This document shows positions 29 to 28,068 of a stretch of 64,000 nucleotides of DNA, one piece after another. Numbering within the stretch: position 1 is the stretch's first letter; each line of letters opens with the position of its first letter. Made by a program: the position numbers and the translations under genes. The notes under the pieces are model-generated. The model did no database searches. It saw only the letters and a program-made list of their open reading frames with translations, and had not been told where the DNA came from. This stretch comes from a bacterium (GTDB taxonomy: Bacteria > Patescibacteriota > Patescibacteriia > HK-STAS-PATE-3): contig JAZDMR010000011.1 in NCBI GenBank assembly GCA_043800725.1, positions 21,369 to 85,368 on the forward strand, written 5' to 3'.

Positions 29-274
29 TTGGCATTAAACTTTTTGTTAGCACTGACTGGTTATGTACCAGGGTTTGCCTATATTCGTCAAGTCCCCAAA
101 TTAATTGACCAAGTCAATGTGGGTGTATTTATTAATGTTTTTATATTATTTGAGGTGATCCTTATAGAAGGGATATTTGCTTTCTTGACAAAGTTTTTCA
201 AAGTTTTGCCAATCTTTTTTGGTAGCTTTATTTCTCCACCATTTGGATTTTTCGAAAGAAAATCCTTGCATTAA
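29..274 (+). CDS. hypothetical small hydrophobic protein (window edge; weak)
   Basis: 81-aa ORF, hydrophobic composition; no recognizable motif. Confidence 0.2.
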   Translation: MALNFLLALTGYVPGFAYIRQVPKLIDQVNVGVFINVFILFEVILIEGIFAFLTKFFKVLPIFFGSFISPPFGFFERKSLH

Positions 275-342: not shown

Positions 343-885
343 TTAAAGAATGTATGGTAATTTTTGTTCGCTGATAATAGGGATCCAGGGCATTTCGGCG
401 CTGAATAAATTAATTACGTTATTACAGACCAAACCTTCTTTTCGAATATTTTGAATCATTTGTTTTTTAGTTTGGCCGTGGCCCGAAGCATCATCAATTA
501 ATGCAATACGCCAATTAGGCTGGTAAGATCCTTCAATTACATTACGTTCACCTTTTATACCCCTCTTATCGCGTAGACAAAGAAATGGAAGGCCAGTTTG
601 TTGTGAAACAGAGACTGCTAGTGGTGTGCCCGCAGTAGGTGCTCCGCAGACCGCATCGATAGGCAGACGTTTAGCAATCTGACCCAGCGTTTTTCCAAAC
701 AAGTTTAAAATCTTGGGATCCGAATACATCCTACGTGAAGCAATATACATGCAGTAAAATCTATCCTGAGCACCATAAAATTTCCCCGGCATTAGGAAAG
801 GGAAATCGGAAAATAACTTCAGAAGCTGCTTCTTATATTTGGGGCTAGCGGTCATATTAGTTGAGAATATATTTTGAATTACCAA
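343..885 (-). CDS. type I phosphoribosyltransferase (orotate PRTase-like)
   Basis: PRPP-binding motif 'RIALIDDASGHGQT' and 'VCGAPTAGTPLA' typical of type I PRTases. Confidence 0.6.
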   Translation of the reverse strand: MVIQNIFSTNMTASPKYKKQLLKLFSDFPFLMPGKFYGAQDRFYCMYIASRRMYSDPKILNLFGKTLGQIAKRLPIDAVCGAPTAGTPLAVSVSQQTGLPFLCLRDKRGIKGERNVIEGSYQPNWRIALIDDASGHGQTKKQMIQNIRKEGLVCNNVINLFSAEMPWIPIISEQKLPYIL

Positions 886-2216: not shown

Positions 2217-3617
2217 TTAGCTGAACTGATTAATAATTACTCGAATCGCGAAGTAGATGAAGAATATGGAAATGCCGGACATAATGATATTGGTCAGCCA
2301 GTTTGGCCTCAAGGGTTTGGGCAGGCGAGTATTGTTTAAATAAATCAGGAAAGGCGTATAAATAGCCATGGTTAAGCCGCCCAAGACCGCGGAAATAACC
2401 AGCAGCGTTAATGGTTGCTCCAAAGGCAATAATGCGGCTCCGATTATCACTACCGCGACAATGATTGTGTAATATAGCCGGCTAAGAGAGATGTTTTTTA
2501 ACCAAGATAGTTTACTGGAAAACGGACCGACTCGCGAGTTGGTATACAAAATATTGCTGACGATTCTTGTTAGTGCATCGATCACGGTCCACATGACCGA
2601 GAAGAGCATCAAGAAAGCCATGATCAGGAAAAGATAATAGCCGACCTGTCCCCAATTATCACTAAATATTTTAGCCTGGGTCACAGCCACATCCAGACCT
2701 TCTGGCACCAGGCCCTGAGGCGTCAAGACCACATAAGCGTTAACGCTGAGCAATATCAAAGTAATCAAACCTAACAGCCAGAAAATAATGCCCTGGTCGA
2801 CCCGGACGTATCTCATCCAGCCTTTCCAGCGGCGCAAATTTTTTTCATTAGGCTCAAAGGTAAAGCCGGTCGGTTCGACAGCTTCGGATTTGCCAGTGAT
2901 TGGGTTTTCAATCCTGCCAACATACTTAGCCATACCCAGCTGCTTATCCCGATACCATAGCGATACGGCCAGATTAAGCATGCCGCCAGCCCCGGCAAAC
3001 ACCACGGCGCTTAATAGCAAATTAATGTCTATGCCCTCGGGGATATGCCCGAAATTTACCAAGCCCTTGAATGTTTCTACCAGATCAGATCCGGATAAGT
3101 TGAAAAAGCTGATGGTTAGCAACATCACAAAAAAAACAGGGACAGTTATTTTTAAAGATTTTTCCAGCATGGCGTAGGCGGCCCGTCCGCTAAAAGTCAG
3201 CACCAAAACCAGGGCCAGAGTAATCCAGGACCACATCAAATGACTGCCAAAACCAAACAGCTCGCGTAGCAGAGTGCCGATTGAGCTGGCCCAGCCCGGC
3301 CAGATATACAGCAAAATAGCGGAAAAAAACCAAAAAACGGTTGACCATTTTAATACCCGTGCCGAAGTAGCAAAAAAGCCTTCACCAGTAGCTAGGGCAT
3401 GGCGAGCTACTTCCTGGTTGATGAAATATTGAAAACTAATTCCTAAAAGAGCCAGCCAAAGCAGACCCAAGCCGAATTTGGTAATTAAATGCGGCCAGAT
3501 TATTAGCTCGCCAGTGCCGATAGCCAAGCCCATAACCACCACCCCGACACCCAAAGCCTTGGTCCAGTTTGGCGGTGCGGGAAGTTCTCGTTTTTCTAAT
3601 GGAGGATAGCGACCCAT
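2217..3617 (-). CDS. Nramp-family (MntH-like) divalent metal transporter homolog, divergent
   Basis: 466-aa polytopic membrane protein; TM1/TM2 region resembles Nramp (LLW...L...Q...A..ATG) but the DPGN motif is replaced by GTGE. Confidence 0.45.
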   Translation of the reverse strand: MGRYPPLEKRELPAPPNWTKALGVGVVVMGLAIGTGELIIWPHLITKFGLGLLWLALLGISFQYFINQEVARHALATGEGFFATSARVLKWSTVFWFFSAILLYIWPGWASSIGTLLRELFGFGSHLMWSWITLALVLVLTFSGRAAYAMLEKSLKITVPVFFVMLLTISFFNLSGSDLVETFKGLVNFGHIPEGIDINLLLSAVVFAGAGGMLNLAVSLWYRDKQLGMAKYVGRIENPITGKSEAVEPTGFTFEPNEKNLRRWKGWMRYVRVDQGIIFWLLGLITLILLSVNAYVVLTPQGLVPEGLDVAVTQAKIFSDNWGQVGYYLFLIMAFLMLFSVMWTVIDALTRIVSNILYTNSRVGPFSSKLSWLKNISLSRLYYTIIVAVVIIGAALLPLEQPLTLLVISAVLGGLTMAIYTPFLIYLNNTRLPKPLRPNWLTNIIMSGISIFFIYFAIRVIINQFS

Positions 3618-3682
3618 TTATTTTTACAGTATAGCTAAACTGGCTAATTCTTAATTAGTATACACTGGAAATTGGCTGGAGG

Positions 3683-6600
3683 CTAATTGTCTTTGGGTAG
3701 CTGAAGCTTGGCAACTATTTTTTGCAGGGTTTTTAGCCAGTCAACATCCAAGGCGTTCTTATCGATCTTCGCTTGGTCGCCCATAAAGGACCACTCGGTG
3801 GCGAATTTCTTCAGGATTTTCATGGTGTCAACAGAGACCTTGCTGGCGAATTTCAATAAAATTCTTTCTTTAGGCAAGCCATCTACAGAAATTTTTGAGG
3901 CGGTTAAATGGGTCAGGTCGGTATGCTGGGACAAAATTTTAATTTTTAAAACTTCAAATAAATTGCTTAGGCTTTTTGGCAAGTCAACGCCGCGGAACTC
4001 TTTGTTGATAAAAGCGGTCAAATCTTGTTCAGTAGTTAGACCCGCCAGCTGCTGATAAATCTTTAAACGTCTCGGCTCGCTAGGCACCAAAGTTTGCGGA
4101 ATACCGATTTCAACGGGCAGATCAATTTGTACGTCTCGCAGCGGTCTAGGGATTGCTCCGGTTTTGTATTCATCAATAGCTTGGGCCAGCAGCCTGGTAT
4201 ACAGGGCCAGACCAATAGCCGCAACCTTGCCGTGCTGTTCGCGGCCCAACAAGTTGCCGGTGCCCCTGATTTCCAGATCCCGGAGAGCGATTTGAAAACC
4301 AGAGCCGAGCTCTTTGGCTTCCAAAAGCGCTTGCAGGCGTTTACGGGCTGAATCATTCAGCTTGTTTGCGTGGTATAAGAAATAGGCATAAGCCTGGCGC
4401 TTACTGCGTCCGACCCGGCCCCTGAGCTGATATAATTGCGCCAGGCCGAACTTAGGCGAGTTATCAACGATTAGGGTATTTACATTAGGCAGGTCCAGTC
4501 CGCTTTCAATAATTGTCGAGCAAACCAGGAGGTTAGTTTTTTTATTGTCAAAATCGGACATTGAACGAGCCAAGGTTTCCTCGGCCATTTGCCCGTGAGC
4601 AATGCCGATTTTGGCTTGGGGCACCAGCTTTTGTAATCTTTGGGCGGCTAACTCGATTGTTTCCACATTATTATAGAGATAATAGATCTGGCCCTTGCGC
4701 TTAAGTTCCCGCTCAATTGCTTTAATGACAATTGCGTCTTCATAGGGCTTGATAATTGTTTCAATCGGTAAGCGCCCCTCGGGAGGCGTTTCGATAACGC
4801 TGATGTCTCTTAAGCCAGACAGAGCGAAATTCAGAGTGCGAGGAATAGGCGTGGCTGTCAGGGTCAAAATGTGGGCCTGGGTGCGCAAGCGCTTAAGTTG
4901 TTCCTTATGTCGCACGCCGAATCTCTGCTCCTCGTCGATAATAATCAGGCCTAAGTCGCGAAAGATGATATCCGGTGAAAGCAAGCGATGCGTGCCGATA
5001 ATAATATCAACATCGCGAGTGCGCAGTTTGCGGACCACCTCACCCTGTTCTTTATCGGAGCGAAAACGCGAAAGTATTTCTATTTTTACATTAATACCTT
5101 TAAGTCTTTGCTGAAAAGTATCATAGTGCTGCTGAGTTAAAATAGTAGTGGGCGAGAGCAAAGCGACTTGTTTGCCGTTCAGCACCGCTTTTAGGGCCGC
5201 CCGGATAGCCACTTCAGTTTTACCAAAACCTACGTCTCCGCAAACCAAGCGATCCATAGGCTTGCTCTTGGACAGATCTTCCATTACCTCATCGATCACG
5301 TGAGACTGGTCAGTAGTTAGCTCATAAGCAAATGAGTCAGCTAACTCACGCTCTTCCGGGAAAGTCTGGCTAAATGCCGCCGCTTTTGACGTATCGCGCT
5401 GAGCATAAAGCTGAAGCAGCTCCTGGGCGATTTTTGAGGCTTCTTCGCGTATTTTGTGGGTTATCTGATACCAATTGCTGCCGGACAAGCGATGGAGCTT
5501 CGGCTGGGCCAGGCCAAAATATTTAGTAATTTTTTCCGCAGATTCGACCGGCACAAAAAGCTTATCGCTCTCAGCATATTCAATCACAAAGTATTCTTTG
5601 GTGATGTCATCGATTTTATTTGAGGTCATGCCAGTAAACTGTCCAATGCCGTGATCTAAGTGAACAACGAAGTCGCCCATCCTGAGTTCAGCAATAAAAA
5701 CCGAAGCACTGACTCGCGGACCTTGTTTTTCCGGCTTAGCCTCAACTTTTTCGCCGAAGATGTCCGTGTCCGCAAACACACTTATTTTTTCCTGATCGTT
5801 GCGCCAACCGTAAATTATCTGTCCGGGCGCGGGTTTTAAAAAGGTGAGCAGATCAAGCTTTTTACTTTGAAACAGCTTGGCTAGAGAGTGCTTATGTTCA
5901 GTAATGATTTGGATTTCAAAACCGGTCTTTTGCAGTTTTTTAATATCATCAGTAAATTGGTTCAGGTGATTATGATAAAGTTTTTGAGATTGGAAATCAT
6001 AAGCCAGCGATTTCTGAGTGCCAAAGGTATAAAAAGTGATTTGTTTGAAGTGACTGAGCTGCTGAGAATATTTAGGCCAGTCTTGATCAAGCTCCTGAAA
6101 GCTCTCAGGATCAGAACTGATAACAATTGTTTTTTCTGAAGGCAGATAATCAAAAACTGAAGCGCTCATAGCGGTATTATTAAGCTTGATAGGCAGGATT
6201 GTAATAGTATTTTGAGCAGTTCCCGTACGTCGGGTAGTAATAGTAACTGGTTTGATTGAATCAATCTTAGAACCAACAAATTCCAGCCGTAATGGCTTAT
6301 TAAGCTGAGGTGAATATATATCCACAATACCCCCTCGCCGAGAATAGGTGCCTGGGCTGTCAGCTTGAGTTTCCTGTGCGTAGCCTATTTTTATGAGATG
6401 CTCTGCTAATCGGATTAAATCGTATTCTTGACCAGCATTAAGTTTCAAAGTAGCTTGCTGCAAAACGGTAGGCGAAGGAAAAGGATAATGCATAATTGGC
6501 AAAGACAGAATAGTAACTCCCGACCGGCCCTTGGCTAAGTTGGATAAAGCCTGAACATTGGAAGGCTCAAGATCAGTTATCGGTACTGGCTTCTTTAATA

Positions 6601-6814
6601 TCTCCCCCCAGAATTTAAGCTGATGAAAAAGCTCTTCTCCTTCGCGGATGTTTCGGACCAACCATAAAACCACCCAGTCTTTGGCCATTAACGGCAAAGC
6701 CTGAGACATCAACCAAGCTTTAGCAGAGCTATTAGTAAGTCCGGAAAGCTCGGTTTGGCTTTCCTTTTTGATAAGTTCGGCAATAGCCGAACCAGGTGTT
6801 TTGGTACGGTTCAC
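3683..6814 (-). CDS. mfd: transcription-repair coupling factor Mfd
   Basis: 1043 aa; Walker A 'GDVGFGKTEVA', DEEQ helicase motif, 'LTATPIPRTL', TRG-like motif. Confidence 0.9.
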   Translation of the reverse strand: MNRTKTPGSAIAELIKKESQTELSGLTNSSAKAWLMSQALPLMAKDWVVLWLVRNIREGEELFHQLKFWGEILKKPVPITDLEPSNVQALSNLAKGRSGVTILSLPIMHYPFPSPTVLQQATLKLNAGQEYDLIRLAEHLIKIGYAQETQADSPGTYSRRGGIVDIYSPQLNKPLRLEFVGSKIDSIKPVTITTRRTGTAQNTITILPIKLNNTAMSASVFDYLPSEKTIVISSDPESFQELDQDWPKYSQQLSHFKQITFYTFGTQKSLAYDFQSQKLYHNHLNQFTDDIKKLQKTGFEIQIITEHKHSLAKLFQSKKLDLLTFLKPAPGQIIYGWRNDQEKISVFADTDIFGEKVEAKPEKQGPRVSASVFIAELRMGDFVVHLDHGIGQFTGMTSNKIDDITKEYFVIEYAESDKLFVPVESAEKITKYFGLAQPKLHRLSGSNWYQITHKIREEASKIAQELLQLYAQRDTSKAAAFSQTFPEERELADSFAYELTTDQSHVIDEVMEDLSKSKPMDRLVCGDVGFGKTEVAIRAALKAVLNGKQVALLSPTTILTQQHYDTFQQRLKGINVKIEILSRFRSDKEQGEVVRKLRTRDVDIIIGTHRLLSPDIIFRDLGLIIIDEEQRFGVRHKEQLKRLRTQAHILTLTATPIPRTLNFALSGLRDISVIETPPEGRLPIETIIKPYEDAIVIKAIERELKRKGQIYYLYNNVETIELAAQRLQKLVPQAKIGIAHGQMAEETLARSMSDFDNKKTNLLVCSTIIESGLDLPNVNTLIVDNSPKFGLAQLYQLRGRVGRSKRQAYAYFLYHANKLNDSARKRLQALLEAKELGSGFQIALRDLEIRGTGNLLGREQHGKVAAIGLALYTRLLAQAIDEYKTGAIPRPLRDVQIDLPVEIGIPQTLVPSEPRRLKIYQQLAGLTTEQDLTAFINKEFRGVDLPKSLSNLFEVLKIKILSQHTDLTHLTASKISVDGLPKERILLKFASKVSVDTMKILKKFATEWSFMGDQAKIDKNALDVDWLKTLQKIVAKLQLPKDN

Positions 6815-7115
6815 TTAAGATAGATAATTGATACTCAAACAAACAAAGTCATTCGCATCTCATGCGTTCATATACAAGTATAGCGCAGATAGGCGATTTT
6901 GGCAATATCTGCCTAAAAAGGGCTTGACATAGCAGAAAACATGTGTTATCGTTGCCAGTTACTTTAAAAATCTCATGCTTAGCACGCTATTGATAAGTTG
7001 CGAACTAACTGCGACCCCTCCTTAGCAGTTATAGTAGCTTAAAGTTAAGGTCTAAACTGTTTTCAGCTTAAATCTTACGCTTATCAGTAGCGTAGTGGGT
7101 GTGAGATTTTGTGTC

Positions 7116-7144
7116 TTGACTCTCTAGCAATAATCAGATAAATT
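7116..7144 (+). promoter_or_regulatory. sigma70-like promoter TTGACT-17-TAAATT upstream of the tRNA cluster
   Basis: hexamers read directly from the sequence, 17-nt spacer, about 60 nt upstream of the first tRNA. Confidence 0.35.
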
Positions 7145-7206
7145 CAGTCAGCGTGGTTTTGTTACCATGCCAAGTTCGTTTGATTATAGTAGCGCAATCG
7201 TCTGGT

Positions 7207-7337
7207 GAGGGGTGTAGCTCAGTTCGGTAGAGTGCAAGACTGTGGATCTTGAAGTCGGTGGTTCTCTCGCATTGCCGCGGGATCCCGCAATCGTTGTTTA
7301 AATAATGGGGTGCGGGAAAATCCGTTCACCCTTCCCA
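7207..7337 (+). tRNA. tRNA-His(GTG) carrying a roughly 58-nt insertion in the T-arm (possible intron, inserted element or pseudogene)
   Basis: G-1, acceptor AGGGGTG/CACCCTT, C73 and encoded CCA; D-arm and anticodon arm (loop CTGTGGA) canonical; after GGTGGTTC a hairpin-containing insert (ATTGCCGCGGGATCCCGCAAT) precedes the 3' acceptor. Confidence 0.5.
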
Positions 7338-7355
7338 AGTTCTTTGTAAATTTAT

Positions 7356-7431
7356 GCGCCGGTAGCTCAATGTTTGGTAGAGCGGCCGATTCTTAATCGG
7401 CAGGTTGTGGGATCGAGCCCCACCTGGCGCA
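7356..7431 (+). tRNA. tRNA-Lys(CTT)
   Basis: acceptor GCGCCGG/CTGGCGC, D-arm GCTC..GAGC, anticodon loop TTCTTAA, T-arm GTGGG-ATCGAGC-CCCAC, discriminator A, no encoded CCA. Confidence 0.85.
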
Positions 7432-7454
7432 CAGTTTATCATTACAGATCGGTT

Positions 7455-7533
7455 TCGGGGGGTGGAGTTGCGACTGGTACAACGTCAAGGCAGTCTGTCC
7501 TGACGACACTTGCCGAGCTCGAGGGCCCCCCGA
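7455..7533 (+). repeat. tRNA-like structured spacer element, copy 1 (TCGGGGGG...CCCCCCGA closing stem)
   Basis: about 75% identical to the element at 7674-7751; contains a D-arm-like GTTG-CGACTGGTA-CAAC hairpin. Confidence 0.6.
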
Positions 7534-7582
7534 TCTATCTTCTCCGAAGTTTCTACATGGAGTGGCGCTACAGTTTTAGAGG

Positions 7583-7668
7583 GCTGACGTAGCTCAGATG
7601 GTAGAGCATCGGCAAGTACTGGAAGGGAAAGCCGAGGGTCACGAGTTCGAGTCTCGTCGTCAGCTCCA
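7583..7668 (+). tRNA. tRNA of undetermined identity with a 17-nt anticodon loop (10-nt insertion)
   Basis: perfect acceptor (GCTGACG/CGTCAGC), D, anticodon-stem (TCGGC/GCCGA) and T arms plus encoded CCA, but the loop between the anticodon stem halves is AAGTACTGGAAGGGAAA. Confidence 0.55.
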
Positions 7669-7673
7669 GTTTG

Positions 7674-7751
7674 TCGGGGGCTAAAGTTACGACAGGTATA
7701 CCGTTGGGGCAATCTGCCCTGACGCCACTTGCCGAACTCGATGCCCCCCGA
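7674..7751 (+). repeat. tRNA-like structured spacer element, copy 2
   Basis: homologous to 7455-7533; TCGGGGG...CCCCCCGA closing stem. Confidence 0.6.
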
Positions 7752-7771
7752 CCAGATCTTTCAAAGTATTC

Positions 7772-7890
7772 GCGGGAATAGCTCAGTGGCTAGAGCGGCT
7801 GACTTTTAATCAGTAGGTTGGGGGTTCTCCGCCACCGAAAGTAGGAATAGTTGGCGGATCAGCCTCAAGCCGAGAGTCCCATTTCCCGTA
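7772..7890 (+). tRNA. tRNA-Lys(TTT) carrying a roughly 43-nt insertion in the T-arm region
   Basis: acceptor GCGGGAA paired with TTCCCGT (G1-U72), canonical D-arm and anticodon loop CTTTTAA; after GGGGGTTC a hairpin (TCCGCCA..TGGCGGA) insert precedes GAGTCCCA and the acceptor 3' strand. Confidence 0.45.
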
Positions 7891-8158
7891 CAAGTTTCCA
7901 TCCTCCTCAAGGTGGATCCCGAGTGCCGTTGCTTAAACTTTTCCTTGGTTGATTCCTCGGACCAGTTGAAGCACGGCGCTTTTTCTTTTATCTCAATATA
8001 GCTAGATATTTTGATATGTTAAATAAATAACAAGAAACAATATCAAAATACAAACAATATTCAATAACTAATTACCAAGTCCCCCAACTGTTTGATCTAT
8101 CGGAGCTTGAATATTGTGGCTTGCTTGTTATTTGATTATTAGATTTTGTTAATTATTT

Positions 8159-8692
8159 TTACTGCGTCCACTTAAGCAGGAAATCGACAATCGGTTGAAC
8201 AGTTTGCTCTATCTGCTTTTGTTGCTCCTCAGTAAATTTTTGCAGAACATAATCTTCGGCCGGGATGCCCAGTTCTCGGTTGGAGCCGATACCGATGCGC
8301 AAGCGATAAAAGTCCTGAGTGCCAAGCTTGGCGACAATTGACTCAACGCCATTATGCCCGGCCGTACCTCGGTCTTGAGCTGGTCTTAATTCGCCCGGCG
8401 GTAGATCCAGATCGTCATGGATGATCAGGAGGTCTTTTAAAGCCAATCGATAGAAACGGACCATCTCACCGACTGCCTCGCCGGATCTATTCATAAATGT
8501 TTGAGGTTTCATGAAAAACCAGTGATGGGCCGGGTCGTCATTGCGGGTGATCTCTGCTTCGAATTTTTTATTGAAAGAAAAAGGCGCCAGGGATAAATAT
8601 TCTACCAGCTGATCAACCGCCCAAAAGCCGACGTTGTGGCGCGTGTCATCATATTGTTTCCCGGGATTGCCCAGGCCGACGATAAGTTTCAT
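8159..8692 (-). CDS. pth: peptidyl-tRNA hydrolase
   Basis: N-terminal 'MKLIVGLGNPGKQYDDTRHNVGF' signature. Confidence 0.9.
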   Translation of the reverse strand: MKLIVGLGNPGKQYDDTRHNVGFWAVDQLVEYLSLAPFSFNKKFEAEITRNDDPAHHWFFMKPQTFMNRSGEAVGEMVRFYRLALKDLLIIHDDLDLPPGELRPAQDRGTAGHNGVESIVAKLGTQDFYRLRIGIGSNRELGIPAEDYVLQKFTEEQQKQIEQTVQPIVDFLLKWTQ

Positions 8693-13286: not shown

Positions 13287-13868
13287 ATGTCGCATATAAA
13301 TGATTCTATCACCAAAATTAAGATTTGTTGGAGCCTGTATCAGAATGGAGTATCCCTGGAAAGGGTTCCAGATCAATTGGGCATTCATCGGGCGACTGTC
13401 TATCGGTGGATCTATGGGATTAAATTAAAAGGTATTAATAAGTTCATACAAGACTATCGGAACGCCAAGAAAGGCAGACGTCAGCCTCGAAAAACAGATC
13501 CTGTGATTAAGGCTCGTATTTATGCCATTCGTGACGAGTACAAGAGATGTTGTGGTGAAAAGATCCGTTTCATTCTCAAGCGTGATTACGATACTGCTAT
13601 TGGCACAGCAACCATCTACCGTATCTTAGGAGAAAAGTACCAATTACGAGGTAAATGGAAGAAATACAGCAAAAGAGGCTTTGTTAGAAAAGGCCTAAAA
13701 CCAAGGGAAGTTATTCAAACGGATACTGTTGATCTGGGTAGTCTCTATGCTTTCACCGCTATTGATACATTCACAAAAGAAGCCAGCTTTATGTTTTGCG
13801 TTCATTATGCATATGGTGATAAATGCGCCACATGGATATGTCGATGGGACTGTTCTGTTCTTTGTTAA
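13287..13868 (+). pseudogene. truncated IS481/IS3-like DDE transposase fragment (HTH + start of the integrase core)
   Basis: 'HRATVYRW' HTH and 'VIQTDTVDLGSLYAFTAIDTFTKEA' at the start of the DDE core, then the frame ends with most of the integrase (rve) core missing. Confidence 0.55.
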
Positions 13869-25907: not shown

Positions 25908-25984
25908 GGACGATTAGCTCAGTTGGTTAGAGCGCACGATTCACATTCGTGAGGTCGGAGGTTCGACTCCTCCATCGTCCACCA
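25908..25984 (+). tRNA. tRNA-Val(CAC)
   Basis: acceptor GGACGAT/ATCGTCC, D-arm GCTC-AGTTGGTTA-GAGC, anticodon loop TTCACAT, T-arm GGAGG-TTCGACT-CCTCC, encoded CCA. Confidence 0.8.
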
Positions 25985-26682: not shown

Positions 26683-28068
26683 ATGAAAAAAACGCAAGCC
26701 CAAGAAGCAGAACTTGAACCGAGGCCGACAATCAAAGGCCCTAATCTACTCAGGGGCATGAAGGATATTCTGCCCTCAGATCAGCCATATTGGAACAAGG
26801 TGCGCGACGTTGTCCGAGAAATTTCTAATCAGTATCGGTATGAAAGGATTGATACTCCCATTCTGGAAGATACTAGATTATTCATCAGAACCATTGGGAA
26901 AGACACTGATGTAGTTGAAAAGGAAATGTATGAATTTGTTGATCGGAGCGGACAGAATATTGTATTAAGACCGGAAATGTCTGCCCCGGTAGTCCGAGCA
27001 TACATTGAGCACGGACTTTTAAGCTTACCCCAGCCTGTAAAGCTTTATTATTTCGGGCCGATGTTTCGCTATGATCGGCCCCAGGCCGGACGCTATCGCC
27101 AGCACTATCAGTTTGGCTTTGAGGTTTTGGGCGCCGTCCATCCAGTCATCGACGCTCAATTAATTACTATTGCTAATCATCTATATACTCGCTTAGGTAT
27201 TCCAATCAATGTACATATCAACAGCATCGGAGATAAAGAAAGCCGGGGAGTTTATGAGAAAGCGCTAACTGATTACTATAAAAGCCGCAAGAATTCGCTG
27301 TGCGATGACTGTAAAAGGCGTTTGCAAAAAAATCCTCTGCGCTTGCTTGACTGCAAGCAGCCGGATTGCAAGGAATTATCAGTGGACGCCCCCCAAACAG
27401 TGGATTATTTAAATGAAGAAAGCCGCCAGCATTTTGTTTCTGTGCTCGAGTATCTGGATGAGCAGGAAATTGCCTATACCTTAAACCCCAAGATTGTTCG
27501 GGGGCTTGATTATTATACTCGGACTACCTTTGAAATATTTCCCGACCAGGAATCAGATGGACAGTCTTGTCAGGCTTTGGGCGGCGGCGGACGCTATGAC
27601 GATCTGATTGAGGAGCTATGCGGCCGCCCTACTCCAGGAGTTGGCTTTGCCTGCGGAGTGGAAAGGCTGGTTGCTAAATTAAAAGAACAAGAAGCCGATT
27701 TGCCAGGATTACCCGCGCCCGATGTATTTTTAGGGCAATTGGGTGATCCGGCCAGAAAGCTATGTTTAAAGCTTTTTGATGAATTGCAAGCCCAAGGAAT
27801 CGGAGTAGCTGAGAGTTTAAGTAAGGACGGCATAAAAGCCCAGCTGGAAGTGGCTGATCGTTTAGGTGCGAAGTTTGCTTTGATTATCGGCCAGAAAGAA
27901 ATGATGGACGGCACAATCTTGGTTCGCGATATGGAAAATGGAATTCAAGAGGTGGTTGATTTTAAAAGGGCAGTTCCAGAAATTCTCAAGAGGCTAACCA
28001 GAGGTAAACCAAGCGGAATTAACAAGCCTGCCGAGCAACCGGATAAAGAAGAAGATGTCTCAGGCTGA
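26683..28068 (+). CDS. hisS: histidyl-tRNA synthetase
   Basis: class II motifs incl. 'LRPEMSAPVVRAY', 'GGGRYDDL', C-terminal anticodon-binding domain. Confidence 0.9.
   Translation: MKKTQAQEAELEPRPTIKGPNLLRGMKDILPSDQPYWNKVRDVVREISNQYRYERIDTPILEDTRLFIRTIGKDTDVVEKEMYEFVDRSGQNIVLRPEMSAPVVRAYIEHGLLSLPQPVKLYYFGPMFRYDRPQAGRYRQHYQFGFEVLGAVHPVIDAQLITIANHLYTRLGIPINVHINSIGDKESRGVYEKALTDYYKSRKNSLCDDCKRRLQKNPLRLLDCKQPDCKELSVDAPQTVDYLNEESRQHFVSVLEYLDEQEIAYTLNPKIVRGLDYYTRTTFEIFPDQESDGQSCQALGGGGRYDDLIEELCGRPTPGVGFACGVERLVAKLKEQEADLPGLPAPDVFLGQLGDPARKLCLKLFDELQAQGIGVAESLSKDGIKAQLEVADRLGAKFALIIGQKEMMDGTILVRDMENGIQEVVDFKRAVPEILKRLTRGKPSGINKPAEQPDKEEDVSG

Follow-up and report, generated by a model that had tools for sequence, protein, structure and literature searches.

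A fast-changing array of remodelled tRNA-like genes at a conserved locus in a rare clade of Patescibacteria

Introduction

Few genes are, to our knowledge, as uniform as those for bacterial transfer RNA (tRNA), and insertions at sites other than the anticodon loop are commonly seen as peculiar to Archaea. What, then, are tRNA genes whose loops are opened by hairpins or enlarged beyond recognition, and which stand next to each other in a bacterial genome? This question is raised by a cluster at positions 7207-7890 of a 64,000-nucleotide (nt) stretch of DNA from a bacterium of the Patescibacteriia lineage HK-STAS-PATE-3 (GenBank assembly GCA_043800725.1, contig JAZDMR010000011.1, positions 21,369 to 85,368 of the forward strand), hereafter the window. 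An original prediction, made from the sequence alone, described one canonical and three interrupted tRNA genes in this cluster and proposed introns, mini-element insertions or pseudogenes as explanations. Here we describe the anatomy of the cluster and compare it with the same locus in related genomes. Judged from these sequences, the locus appears to be a clade-wide, fast-changing operon of remodelled tRNA-like genes, in a pattern that bears signs of selection. The tRNA-like genes of the cluster, their predicted signals and spacers and the neighbouring small RNA lie on the forward strand.

Results

Anatomy of the tRNA-like cluster

Direct reading of the sequence and folding with the cloverleaf enforced resolved 7207-7890 into four tRNA-derived genes, with a His(GUG) scaffold, a Lys(CUU) gene, a Gly-type scaffold and a Lys(UUU) scaffold. 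The Rfam tRNA model (RF00005; family threshold 29 bits) detected four tRNA-like stretches in the cluster (7208-7277, 7356-7431, 7583-7665 and 7772-7833). All four elements lie where they had been predicted. ARAGORN called two genes only within 7207-7890, Lys(ctt) at 7356-7432 and 'Thr(agt)' at 7583-7668. Instead of a 7-nt anticodon loop with U33 and a 7-nt T-loop, we found an anticodon loop of 17 nt (7614-7630) in the Gly-type gene and T-loops of 60 nt and 53 nt in the His-like and Lys(UUU)-like genes, respectively. Three of the four genes are thus interrupted at defined positions, as proposed, which is confirmed by the anatomy and by the recovery of ARAGORN calls when the T-loop inserts are removed. 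When introns were permitted and the threshold was lowered, ARAGORN returned numerous implausible calls, which were not used. A generic scanner of our own for tRNA-like genes with T-loop inserts gave 190 matches in 636 kb of unrelated loci and was too permissive to serve as an informative control.

The His(GUG)-scaffold gene (7207-7337) was identified by sequence reading, cloverleaf-enforced folding, Rfam, and ARAGORN after removal of its insert. It shows the G-1:C73 pair, the paired acceptor (8/8 positions, one of them G-U) and the encoded CCA that had been noticed before, together with a D arm and a normal anticodon arm (7235-7251; loop CUGUGGA). The 5' strand of the T stem and the following TTC occupy 7257-7264, with T54, T55 and C56 at 7262-7264. 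The gene resumes with AAAT and the 3' strand of the T stem (7318-7326), followed by the acceptor 3' strand, C73 and CCA (7327-7337). Between C56 and position 57 lies an insert of 53 nt (7265-7317); the presence of an insert had been recognised correctly, but the earlier size of about 58 nt also took in the rest of the T arm. On its own, the insert, which contains GGATCC, forms two hairpins that abut each other and take in its first as well as its last nucleotides (-24.3 kcal/mol, z -3.45), and 0 of 200 shuffled sequences folded as well. Rfam scored only the 5' part of the gene (7208-7277), at 27.2 bits and below threshold, and ARAGORN did not call the native gene. After in silico deletion of 7265-7317, ARAGORN with default settings called tRNA-His(gtg) with the T-loop TTCAAAT. 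The likelihood that the 3' half arose by chance was estimated on both strands of the window (128 kb), with G-U pairs allowed. The T-stem 3' strand, acceptor 3' strand, C73 and CCA of the His-like gene were the sole match, at an expectation of 0.0008 per 100 nt, and this interruption is solidly beyond chance.

The Lys(UUU)-scaffold gene (7772-7890) was recognised from the Rfam match to its 5' part, from enforced folding, and from ARAGORN after removal of the insert. Its anticodon loop is normal (CUUUUAA) and it has A73, with no encoded CCA. Rfam assigned 37.2 bits to 7772-7833, the 5' three-quarters of the gene only. The insert interrupts the T-loop at the same site as in the His-like gene, between C56 and position 57, i.e. 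between TTC and GAGU; it measures 46 nt (7828-7873) and not about 43 nt, as first estimated. From its first nucleotide it forms a 7-base-pair (bp) hairpin (TCCGCCA/TGGCGGA), followed by a 15-nt tail, and the fold is not significant (z -1.28). Again, the native gene was not called, and deletion of 7828-7873 in silico led default ARAGORN to call tRNA-Lys(ttt) with the T-loop TTCGAGT. The 3' half of this gene is expected at 0.037 per 100 nt and is marginal when taken alone; the earlier argument that such a match by chance is very unlikely holds firmly for the His-like gene, and for the Lys(UUU)-like gene the case draws on the combined picture. A BLAST search against phage genomes revealed only generic similarity to tRNA-Lys and tRNA-Thr, and the similarity to phage tRNA-Lys ended exactly at 7827, the C of TTC. 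The heptamer TCTCCGC (7826-7832), formed by TC and the first bases of the insert, can form 6 of 7 possible pairs with the 5' strand of the acceptor, which is the alignment chosen by the Rfam model; the match may be due to chance or may be a trace of the origin of the insert.

The remaining two genes carry no T-loop insert. tRNA-Lys(CUU) (7356-7431) is called by ARAGORN and scores 62 bits with Rfam; CCA is not encoded. Its description as canonical is supported by these calls but needs qualification, as it has A54 in place of T54 (T-loop ATCGAGC) and an 11-nt D-loop. The gene at 7583-7668, identified by ARAGORN, Rfam and comparison with relatives, ends with U73 and CCA and scores 56.6 bits (7583-7665), with a 17-nt stretch in place of the 7-nt anticodon loop. 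Its arms had been called flawless, and indeed all 21 stem pairs are Watson-Crick pairs. It is the positional orthologue of a Gly(GCC) gene in a related genome (L085, see below). Since relatives carry a Gly-type scaffold at this position, the ARAGORN label 'Thr(agt)' is misleading.

The only further ARAGORN call in the window was an ordinary tRNA-Val(CAC) at 25908, which is canonical (71.8 bits) and is also present in the related contig L002. The aberrant structure is therefore a property of the locus and not of the tRNAs of this lineage in general. Misassembly had been named as a finding that would overturn the prediction. An independent Logan assembly from a separate run (L001) was 100% identical to the locus over 6534 nt, the insert boundaries are clean, and the arrays of relatives were identical in two to four independent samples each; we thus see no assembly problem.

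The same locus in related genomes

Searches with the Pth and Mfd proteins, which are encoded on either side of the cluster, revealed five or six relatives with more than 60% identity among 5.8 billion proteins. The next tier reached at most 56% (Pth) and 51% (Mfd) and consisted largely of Patescibacteria, several of them labelled Kerfeldbacteria. In a scan of species-representative genomes the best Pth match was merely 65% identical (L002), which indicates that the clade is rare. The array locus belongs to a rare clade of Patescibacteria with about seven known genomes, and both the bacterium of the window and its relatives are uncultured.

The locus was retrieved from six other genomes, referred to here as L082, L089, L090 (= L091), L085 (= L086-L088), L002 plus L095 (overlapping contigs of one metagenome-assembled genome) and L096/L097. 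The original prediction had called for a comparison of the orthologous cluster, and this comparison revealed remodelled tRNA-like genes at the same locus, with a different array in each genome. All six arrays lie on the strand opposite to pth and mfd. Synteny between pth and mfd is conserved across the clade and the arrays hold 2-7 genes each. In a more distant genome (L101; Mfd 51% identical) the gene order is conserved and tRNA-like genes are absent. By hand parsing, 14 of 28 tRNA-like genes in the clade arrays have loops of the wrong size, and anticodon loops range from 3 to 22 nt across the remodelled genes.

A Gly-type scaffold (U73, often with CCA), followed by a spacer, was found in every genome. 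Its anticodon loop measures 17 nt in the window and 22 nt in L089, and is a normal GCC loop in L085. It is reduced to 3-5 nt in L082, in L095 and in the second Gly-type gene of L096, which has A73 instead of U73 and the same CCGCC-UCU-GGCGG arm as L082, and it measures 4-11 nt in the two copies of L090. The other Gly-type gene of L096 (~1005-865, minus strand; U73 and CCA) combines a 12-nt anticodon loop with a helix-closed insert of 64 nt that splits the D stem between G10 and C11, and was missed by both ARAGORN and Rfam.

In the arrays of the relatives, some well-folded tRNA-like genes bear anticodons that match stop codons or are unused, each of them one base off normal: UCA and ACA on Cys-type, CUA on Lys-type and AUG on His scaffolds (minus strand; L082 4820-4892 and 4914-4987; L085 4151-4238; L090 1778-1851 and 1866-1940). 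His(GUG) and Lys(UUU) are absent from the arrays of the relatives. L082 carries a block of five tRNA-like genes and a TonB_C gene that are absent from its close relative L089. In L085 (4666-6307) and L095 (324-2947) the array is separated from mfd by a two-component module, which comprises a PAS histidine kinase and two response regulators (compare window 6815-7206). The intergenic region is a hotspot of gene gain and loss.

Insertions into the T-loop

Across the clade, T-loop inserts were found in five genes from four genomes. Four of the five begin directly after TTC, with a helix from the first inserted base. Besides the two genes of the window, these are a Cys-type scaffold with the anticodon UCA in L085 (~4170-4190, minus strand), in which TTC is followed by CCCCGGATCUCAGUCCGGGG, and a Thr-type scaffold in L095 (~165-185, minus strand), in which TTC is followed by CCCUCGAUCUUGUCGAGGG. 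In the fifth gene (L096, ~590-630, minus strand) the T-loop is replaced by 40 nt and lacks TTC. This sole insert that destroys TTC occurs in the sole gene whose D-loop lacks GG. The hairpins of L085 and L095 are homologous; the same T-loop module can hence appear in different scaffolds. They differ from each other by two compensatory pairs, which argues for a constraint at the RNA level. The T-loops restored by deletion of the window inserts, TTCAAAT and TTCGAGT, both occur in other genes of the clade.

Searches with blastn-short in the window and about 90 fetched loci detected each window insert at its own position only, and the insert junctions showed no terminal repeats and no target duplication. 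The inserts were also considered as complements of the D/anticodon region, as expected for a switch or an inverted duplication. Duplex energies were ordinary, with 251/500 and 151/500 shuffles being as good, and this idea was rejected. GATC is the only 4-mer common to all five inserts. For any one 4-mer the joint probability is 2.3e-5, a post hoc value to be read against 256 possible 4-mers and the homology of two of the inserts; GATC density is 10 per kb in the window array and 4.3 per kb in the whole window.

Conservation of the stems

Nine Gly-type genes were aligned after the anticodon arm and the D-stem insert of L096 had been cut out. In this family, 99.3% of the cells in the acceptor, D and T stems are paired, and 10 of 16 pairs have changed on both sides. 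None of 500 shuffles reached the observed value, and slid registers gave only 39-51% pairing. A similar picture was obtained for the Thr-type gene of L095, which is the orthologue of a canonical Thr(CGU) gene in L085 and has acquired three insertions, the one in the T-loop exactly after TTC. Between these two genes, 8 of 24 nucleotides in the acceptor and T stems differ and every pair is kept. For orientation, Pth is 76% identical between the L095 and L085 genomes and 86% identical between L082 and L089. In the latter pair the spacers are near-identical, whereas the anticodon arms of both flanking tRNA-like genes have been rewritten.

Signals, spacers and neighbourhood of the array

The layout of the cluster suggests a single operon with promoter, two spacers and terminator, each predicted from sequence patterns and folding. 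A consensus scan detected a sigma-70-like promoter, a pattern match only (TTACCA-17-TATAGT; 7162-7190), 17 nt upstream of the first tRNA-like gene, and a second candidate promoter at 7116-7144. Downstream of the last gene, a long hairpin followed by a U tract (UUUUUCUUUU; 7921-7989; z -4.97) lies back-to-back with the 3' end of pth. It is likely to be the intrinsic terminator of the operon, and the terminator layout is the same in the relatives.

The two spacer hairpins are copies of a 76-nt repeat unit. Copy 1 (7455-7535; unit 7455-7530) is a rod closed by CGGGGGG/CCCCCCG, and copy 2 (7673-7752; unit 7674-7749) folds with z -4.78. They share 79% identity and a common fold of 28 pairs, and occur at no third place in the window. 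In every genome of the clade, the Gly-type gene is followed by a hairpin spacer whose closing stem measures 7-9 bp. The spacer sequence itself is kept between close relatives only, such as L082 and L089. An exact-pattern scan of Joint Genome Institute (JGI) metagenomes with the conserved spacer motif gave no matches. L085 and L002 carry a second spacer element besides. It is possible that these hairpin spacers are the operon's functional products.

Just upstream of the array we found a conserved structured small RNA (sRNA) of about 150 nt (6958-7114) with a predicted promoter of its own (6924-6952). One hairpin loop reads GACCCCUCCUUA (CCUCC loop, 7009-7028), which has the same sense as the anti-Shine-Dalgarno sequence of 16S rRNA. 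RNAalifold analysis of seven sequences identified 48 pairs, 27 of them with compensatory changes. Copies are present on the minus strand of L082 (~6108-6262), L089 (~2950-3110), L090 (~2335-2490), L095 (~3018-3160), L096 (~1222-1352) and L101 (~3655-3790). The sRNA thus accompanies the array in the clade and occurs also in L101, which lacks an array. An Rfam scan of 6500-8500 assigned no family to it, and a motif scan of the JGI metagenomes detected one contig, L091, identical to L090.

Housekeeping genes flank the locus: mfd lies at one end, and at the other are pth, der and a LytR-family gene. Histidyl-tRNA synthetase (HisRS) is encoded at 26683-28068. Among 25 open reading frames (ORFs) of the window scanned against Pfam, there was no recombinase, endonuclease or ligase. 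For the ORF at 13287-13868, a match to HTH_32, a helix-turn-helix domain of some transposases, stayed below threshold.

Comparison with introns, mobile elements and other known identities

Archaeal tRNA introns are flanked by two 3-nt bulges on opposite strands with a 4-bp helix between them, which is cut by the splicing endonuclease. By inspection, no such bulge-helix-bulge motif exists at the insert junctions, and no second bulge was seen across a 4-bp helix. A 3-nt strand (TTC) is present on one side only; on the 3' side, either the T stem directly adjoins the insert helix or AAAT or GAGT comes next. Neither a splicing endonuclease nor an RNA ligase was found among the 25 ORFs. Bacterial group I tRNA introns reside in the anticodon loop, measure about 200 nt or more and have a conserved catalytic core. 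The extra sequences of the cluster amount to 10, 46 and 53 nt, too short for group I or group II introns, and Rfam detected no intron family at E-values up to 10 over 6500-8500. Excision of 10 nt from the 17-nt anticodon loop does not repair it either: none of the possible excisions gives U33, and they yield Ser or Tyr anticodons on a scaffold with a short variable arm. Removal as an intervening sequence by ribonuclease (RNase) III requires a long helix of roughly two turns, and the insert helices of 6-7 bp are too short. Taken together, introns, as originally suggested, fit poorly.

The same applies to the suggested mini-element insertions. An element derived from a miniature inverted-repeat transposable element or an insertion sequence would be expected in multiple copies, with inverted repeats and a target duplication; the inserts show none of these, and the fixed target after TTC is the one fitting feature. 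We also rejected integron-like cassettes (no integrase and no attC-type boxes), a diversity-generating retroelement (the changes are not adenine-specific) and an alternative genetic code (the window ORFs read through normally in table 11). The density of the cluster, four genes in 0.7 kb, corresponds to that of a tRNA array unit or L-array, but with 2-7 genes per array and a fixed syntenic locus it was not assigned to this type.

Discussion

We favour, with somewhat less than even confidence, the explanation that the array encodes expressed, structurally constrained and non-decoding tRNA-scaffold RNAs, which keep their inserts in the mature molecule. A precursor transcript would fold into tRNA-shaped modules parted by stable hairpin spacers, from which the enzymes of tRNA end processing would release individual RNAs, with RNase P acting at the 5' end and trimming and CCA addition at the 3' end. 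Wherever the loops are normal, as in Lys(CUU), a module could serve as an ordinary tRNA. Remodelled modules would retain the minihelix of acceptor and T stem, the D stem and, for the most part, the contacts of T54-T55-C56 and G18-G19 at the elbow. They would carry lineage-specific expansions, in the form of either a helix-closed module in the T-loop after C56 and before position 57 or an anticodon loop of any size. These would stay in the mature RNA like expansion segments, unspliced. The resulting RNAs would be unable to decode on the ribosome and might act as tRNA-shaped carriers, decoys or acceptor-end substrates. The acceptor ends are kept, with G-1:C73 and CCA in the His-like and U73 and CCA in the Gly-type gene. 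The recurrence of insertions between positions 56 and 57 fits this explanation, since this is the solvent-exposed tip of the elbow and T54, T55, C56 and the partner A58 are left in place. The arrays may even represent an undescribed class of bacterial tRNA-derived structured RNAs, a proposal we make with some reserve: tRNA scaffolds selected for their L-shaped fold, with loops rebuilt (the T-loop at 56/57, the anticodon loop to 3-22 nt, and the D arm), spacers co-transcribed, the CCUCC-loop sRNA alongside, and a non-translational role.

Several points weigh against this explanation. The comparison comprises about seven genomes, and both the family assignment and the trimming of the variable arm are our own curation. 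Neither of the two interrupted genes of the window has an orthologue, and the case for selection is built on other genes of the clade. Both have weakened T stems, made up of two G-C and three G-U pairs in the His-like gene and containing one G-A mismatch and one G-U pair in the Lys(UUU)-like gene, which in addition has G1-U72 and no CCA; early decay would look alike. Repeated re-derivation of copies from working tRNAs would mimic constraint on the stems. We infer transcription and processing of the array, and we can name no associated protein or function for its RNAs.

Decay is also the ordinary explanation for the two interrupted genes of the window: in a fast-turnover accessory array, recently inactivated and functionless paralogues would be co-transcribed with a few working tRNAs. 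We consider this unlikely, yet it is a serious competitor. The array content differs in each genome, as illustrated by the five-gene block that distinguishes L082 from L089, and single-base breaks of near-universal features occur (His with AUG, Cys-type with ACA or UCA, a Glu-like gene with U56 and an Asp-like gene with G33). Pseudogenes also make up 3 of 26 genes of the Anabaena trn operon (PMC8421152). Working copies of His(GUG) and Lys(UUU), which are missing from the arrays of the relatives, are presumably encoded elsewhere in the genome. Neutral decay, however, does not predict compensatory double changes that keep stems across genomes. Changes are concentrated in loops, inserts recur at one phosphodiester bond, and the Gly-type gene with its non-decoding arm keeps its position and its following spacer in every genome, and its promoter in L082 and L089. 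The original suggestion of pseudogenes is thus supported by the degraded T stems of the window genes and the missing CCA of the Lys(UUU)-like gene, and contradicted by the upkeep of stems in relatives.

A true decoding function would require that a T-loop intron is removed or that the hairpins are cut out or tolerated, so that the window genes supply His and Lys(UUU) decoding. Exact excision restores canonical tRNAs with intact anticodon loops, in the His case with G-1, C73 and CCA, both insertions share one defined site, ARAGORN found no other His or Lys(UUU) gene in the 64-kb window, and HisRS is encoded there. Non-canonical introns of archaeal tRNAs are also found in the T-loop. We regard this as improbable nonetheless, given the lack of a bulge-helix-bulge and the insert helix abutting the T stem, inserts of 20-53 nt that are too small for self-splicing and match no Rfam intron family, helices too short for RNase III-type excision, and sister anticodon loops of 3-22 nt beyond repair by excision. 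The relatives, moreover, must encode His and Lys(UUU) elsewhere. Equally doubtful is an origin at the DNA level, in which a recombinase or transposase targets T-loop DNA (GGTTC^) and leaves short hairpin modules as footprints. T-loops of tRNA genes are known integrase targets, and such an activity would account for four inserts at the same site after TTC, for homologous hairpins in the Cys-type scaffold of L085 and the Thr-type scaffold of L095, and possibly for the GATC shared by five inserts. But the inserts are single-copy, mutually unrelated except for the L085/L095 pair, and free of target duplications and terminal repeats, and the 25 ORFs included no integrase or transposase above the Pfam threshold. 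The two compensatory pairs of the L085/L095 hairpins point to the RNA level, and remodelling of anticodon loops and D arms would be left unexplained. Finally, the source is a metagenome-assembled genome in which tRNA repeats can mis-join, but an artefact or chimera is very hard to reconcile with the identical Logan assembly, the agreement between samples of the relatives, the clean insert boundaries and the coherent reading of the locus.

Non-decoding tRNA shapes joined to hairpins are known from the tRNA-microRNA units of murine gammaherpesvirus 68 (MHV68), the mascRNA of MALAT1 and engineered tRNA scaffolds. In such modules the ends of the RNA are set by tRNA end processing, or an embedded hairpin gains stability from the tRNA fold. 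These systems are eukaryotic, viral or artificial, whereas the array described here is bacterial and its processing is predicted; we know of no bacterial chromosomal operon of this kind. YrlA Y-RNA-like RNAs and the cell-wall tRNA-Gly of Staphylococcus retain the acceptor and T region with little or no use on the ribosome. YrlA has a Ro-binding helix in place of the anticodon arm and the cell-wall tRNA-Gly has a normal anticodon loop, and neither carries a hairpin insert in the T-loop. The YrlA model did not match the arrays (best score 36.9 bits in L085, threshold 69 bits). Similar to the non-canonical introns of Archaea, the inserts are short, lie at defined positions outside the anticodon and restore a canonical tRNA upon removal; they differ in the missing bulge-helix-bulge, the bacterial host and companion loops that excision would not repair. 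Departures from the cloverleaf are shared with tRNA-Sec, tRNA-Pyl, allo-tRNAs and armless mitochondrial tRNAs, all of which retain function.

The nearest described systems are accessory tRNA arrays, e.g. the trn operon of Anabaena with 26 genes, of which 23 are aminoacylated and three are pseudogenes (PMC8421152). L-arrays are defined by at least 20 tRNA genes at a density of at least two per kb on horizontally transferred DNA (PMC4758250). The locus resembles such arrays in its dense, apparently supernumerary and presumably co-transcribed genes, its variable content and some putatively non-functional members (PMC8421152; PMC4758250). In contrast to accessory arrays, which comprise 20-43 mostly canonical tRNAs on mobile DNA, it occupies a fixed site flanked by housekeeping genes and holds 2-7 genes, roughly half of its members have resized loops with the stems kept, and its structured spacers are conserved. 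A 2020 review of non-canonical tRNAs describes altered stem lengths and missing arms, and in 12 of its 20 passages that match our search terms there are no T-loop hairpin inserts and no anticodon loops of 3-22 nt (PMC7609411). Literature searches on T-loop introns or tRNA-like RNAs in Patescibacteria or the candidate phyla radiation returned no papers.

The locus provides a reproducible bacterial case of tRNA scaffolds that have been rebuilt repeatedly, at the T-loop, the anticodon loop and the D arm, with the helices preserved by compensatory change. If the interrupted His gene is the sole one in the genome, the bacterium would need either splicing within the T-loop or ribosomes that tolerate a hairpin at the tRNA elbow. 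If the array is expressed, it would be a natural counterpart of engineered tRNA scaffolds and would add a further non-coding RNA system to a poorly known group of bacteria with reduced genomes.

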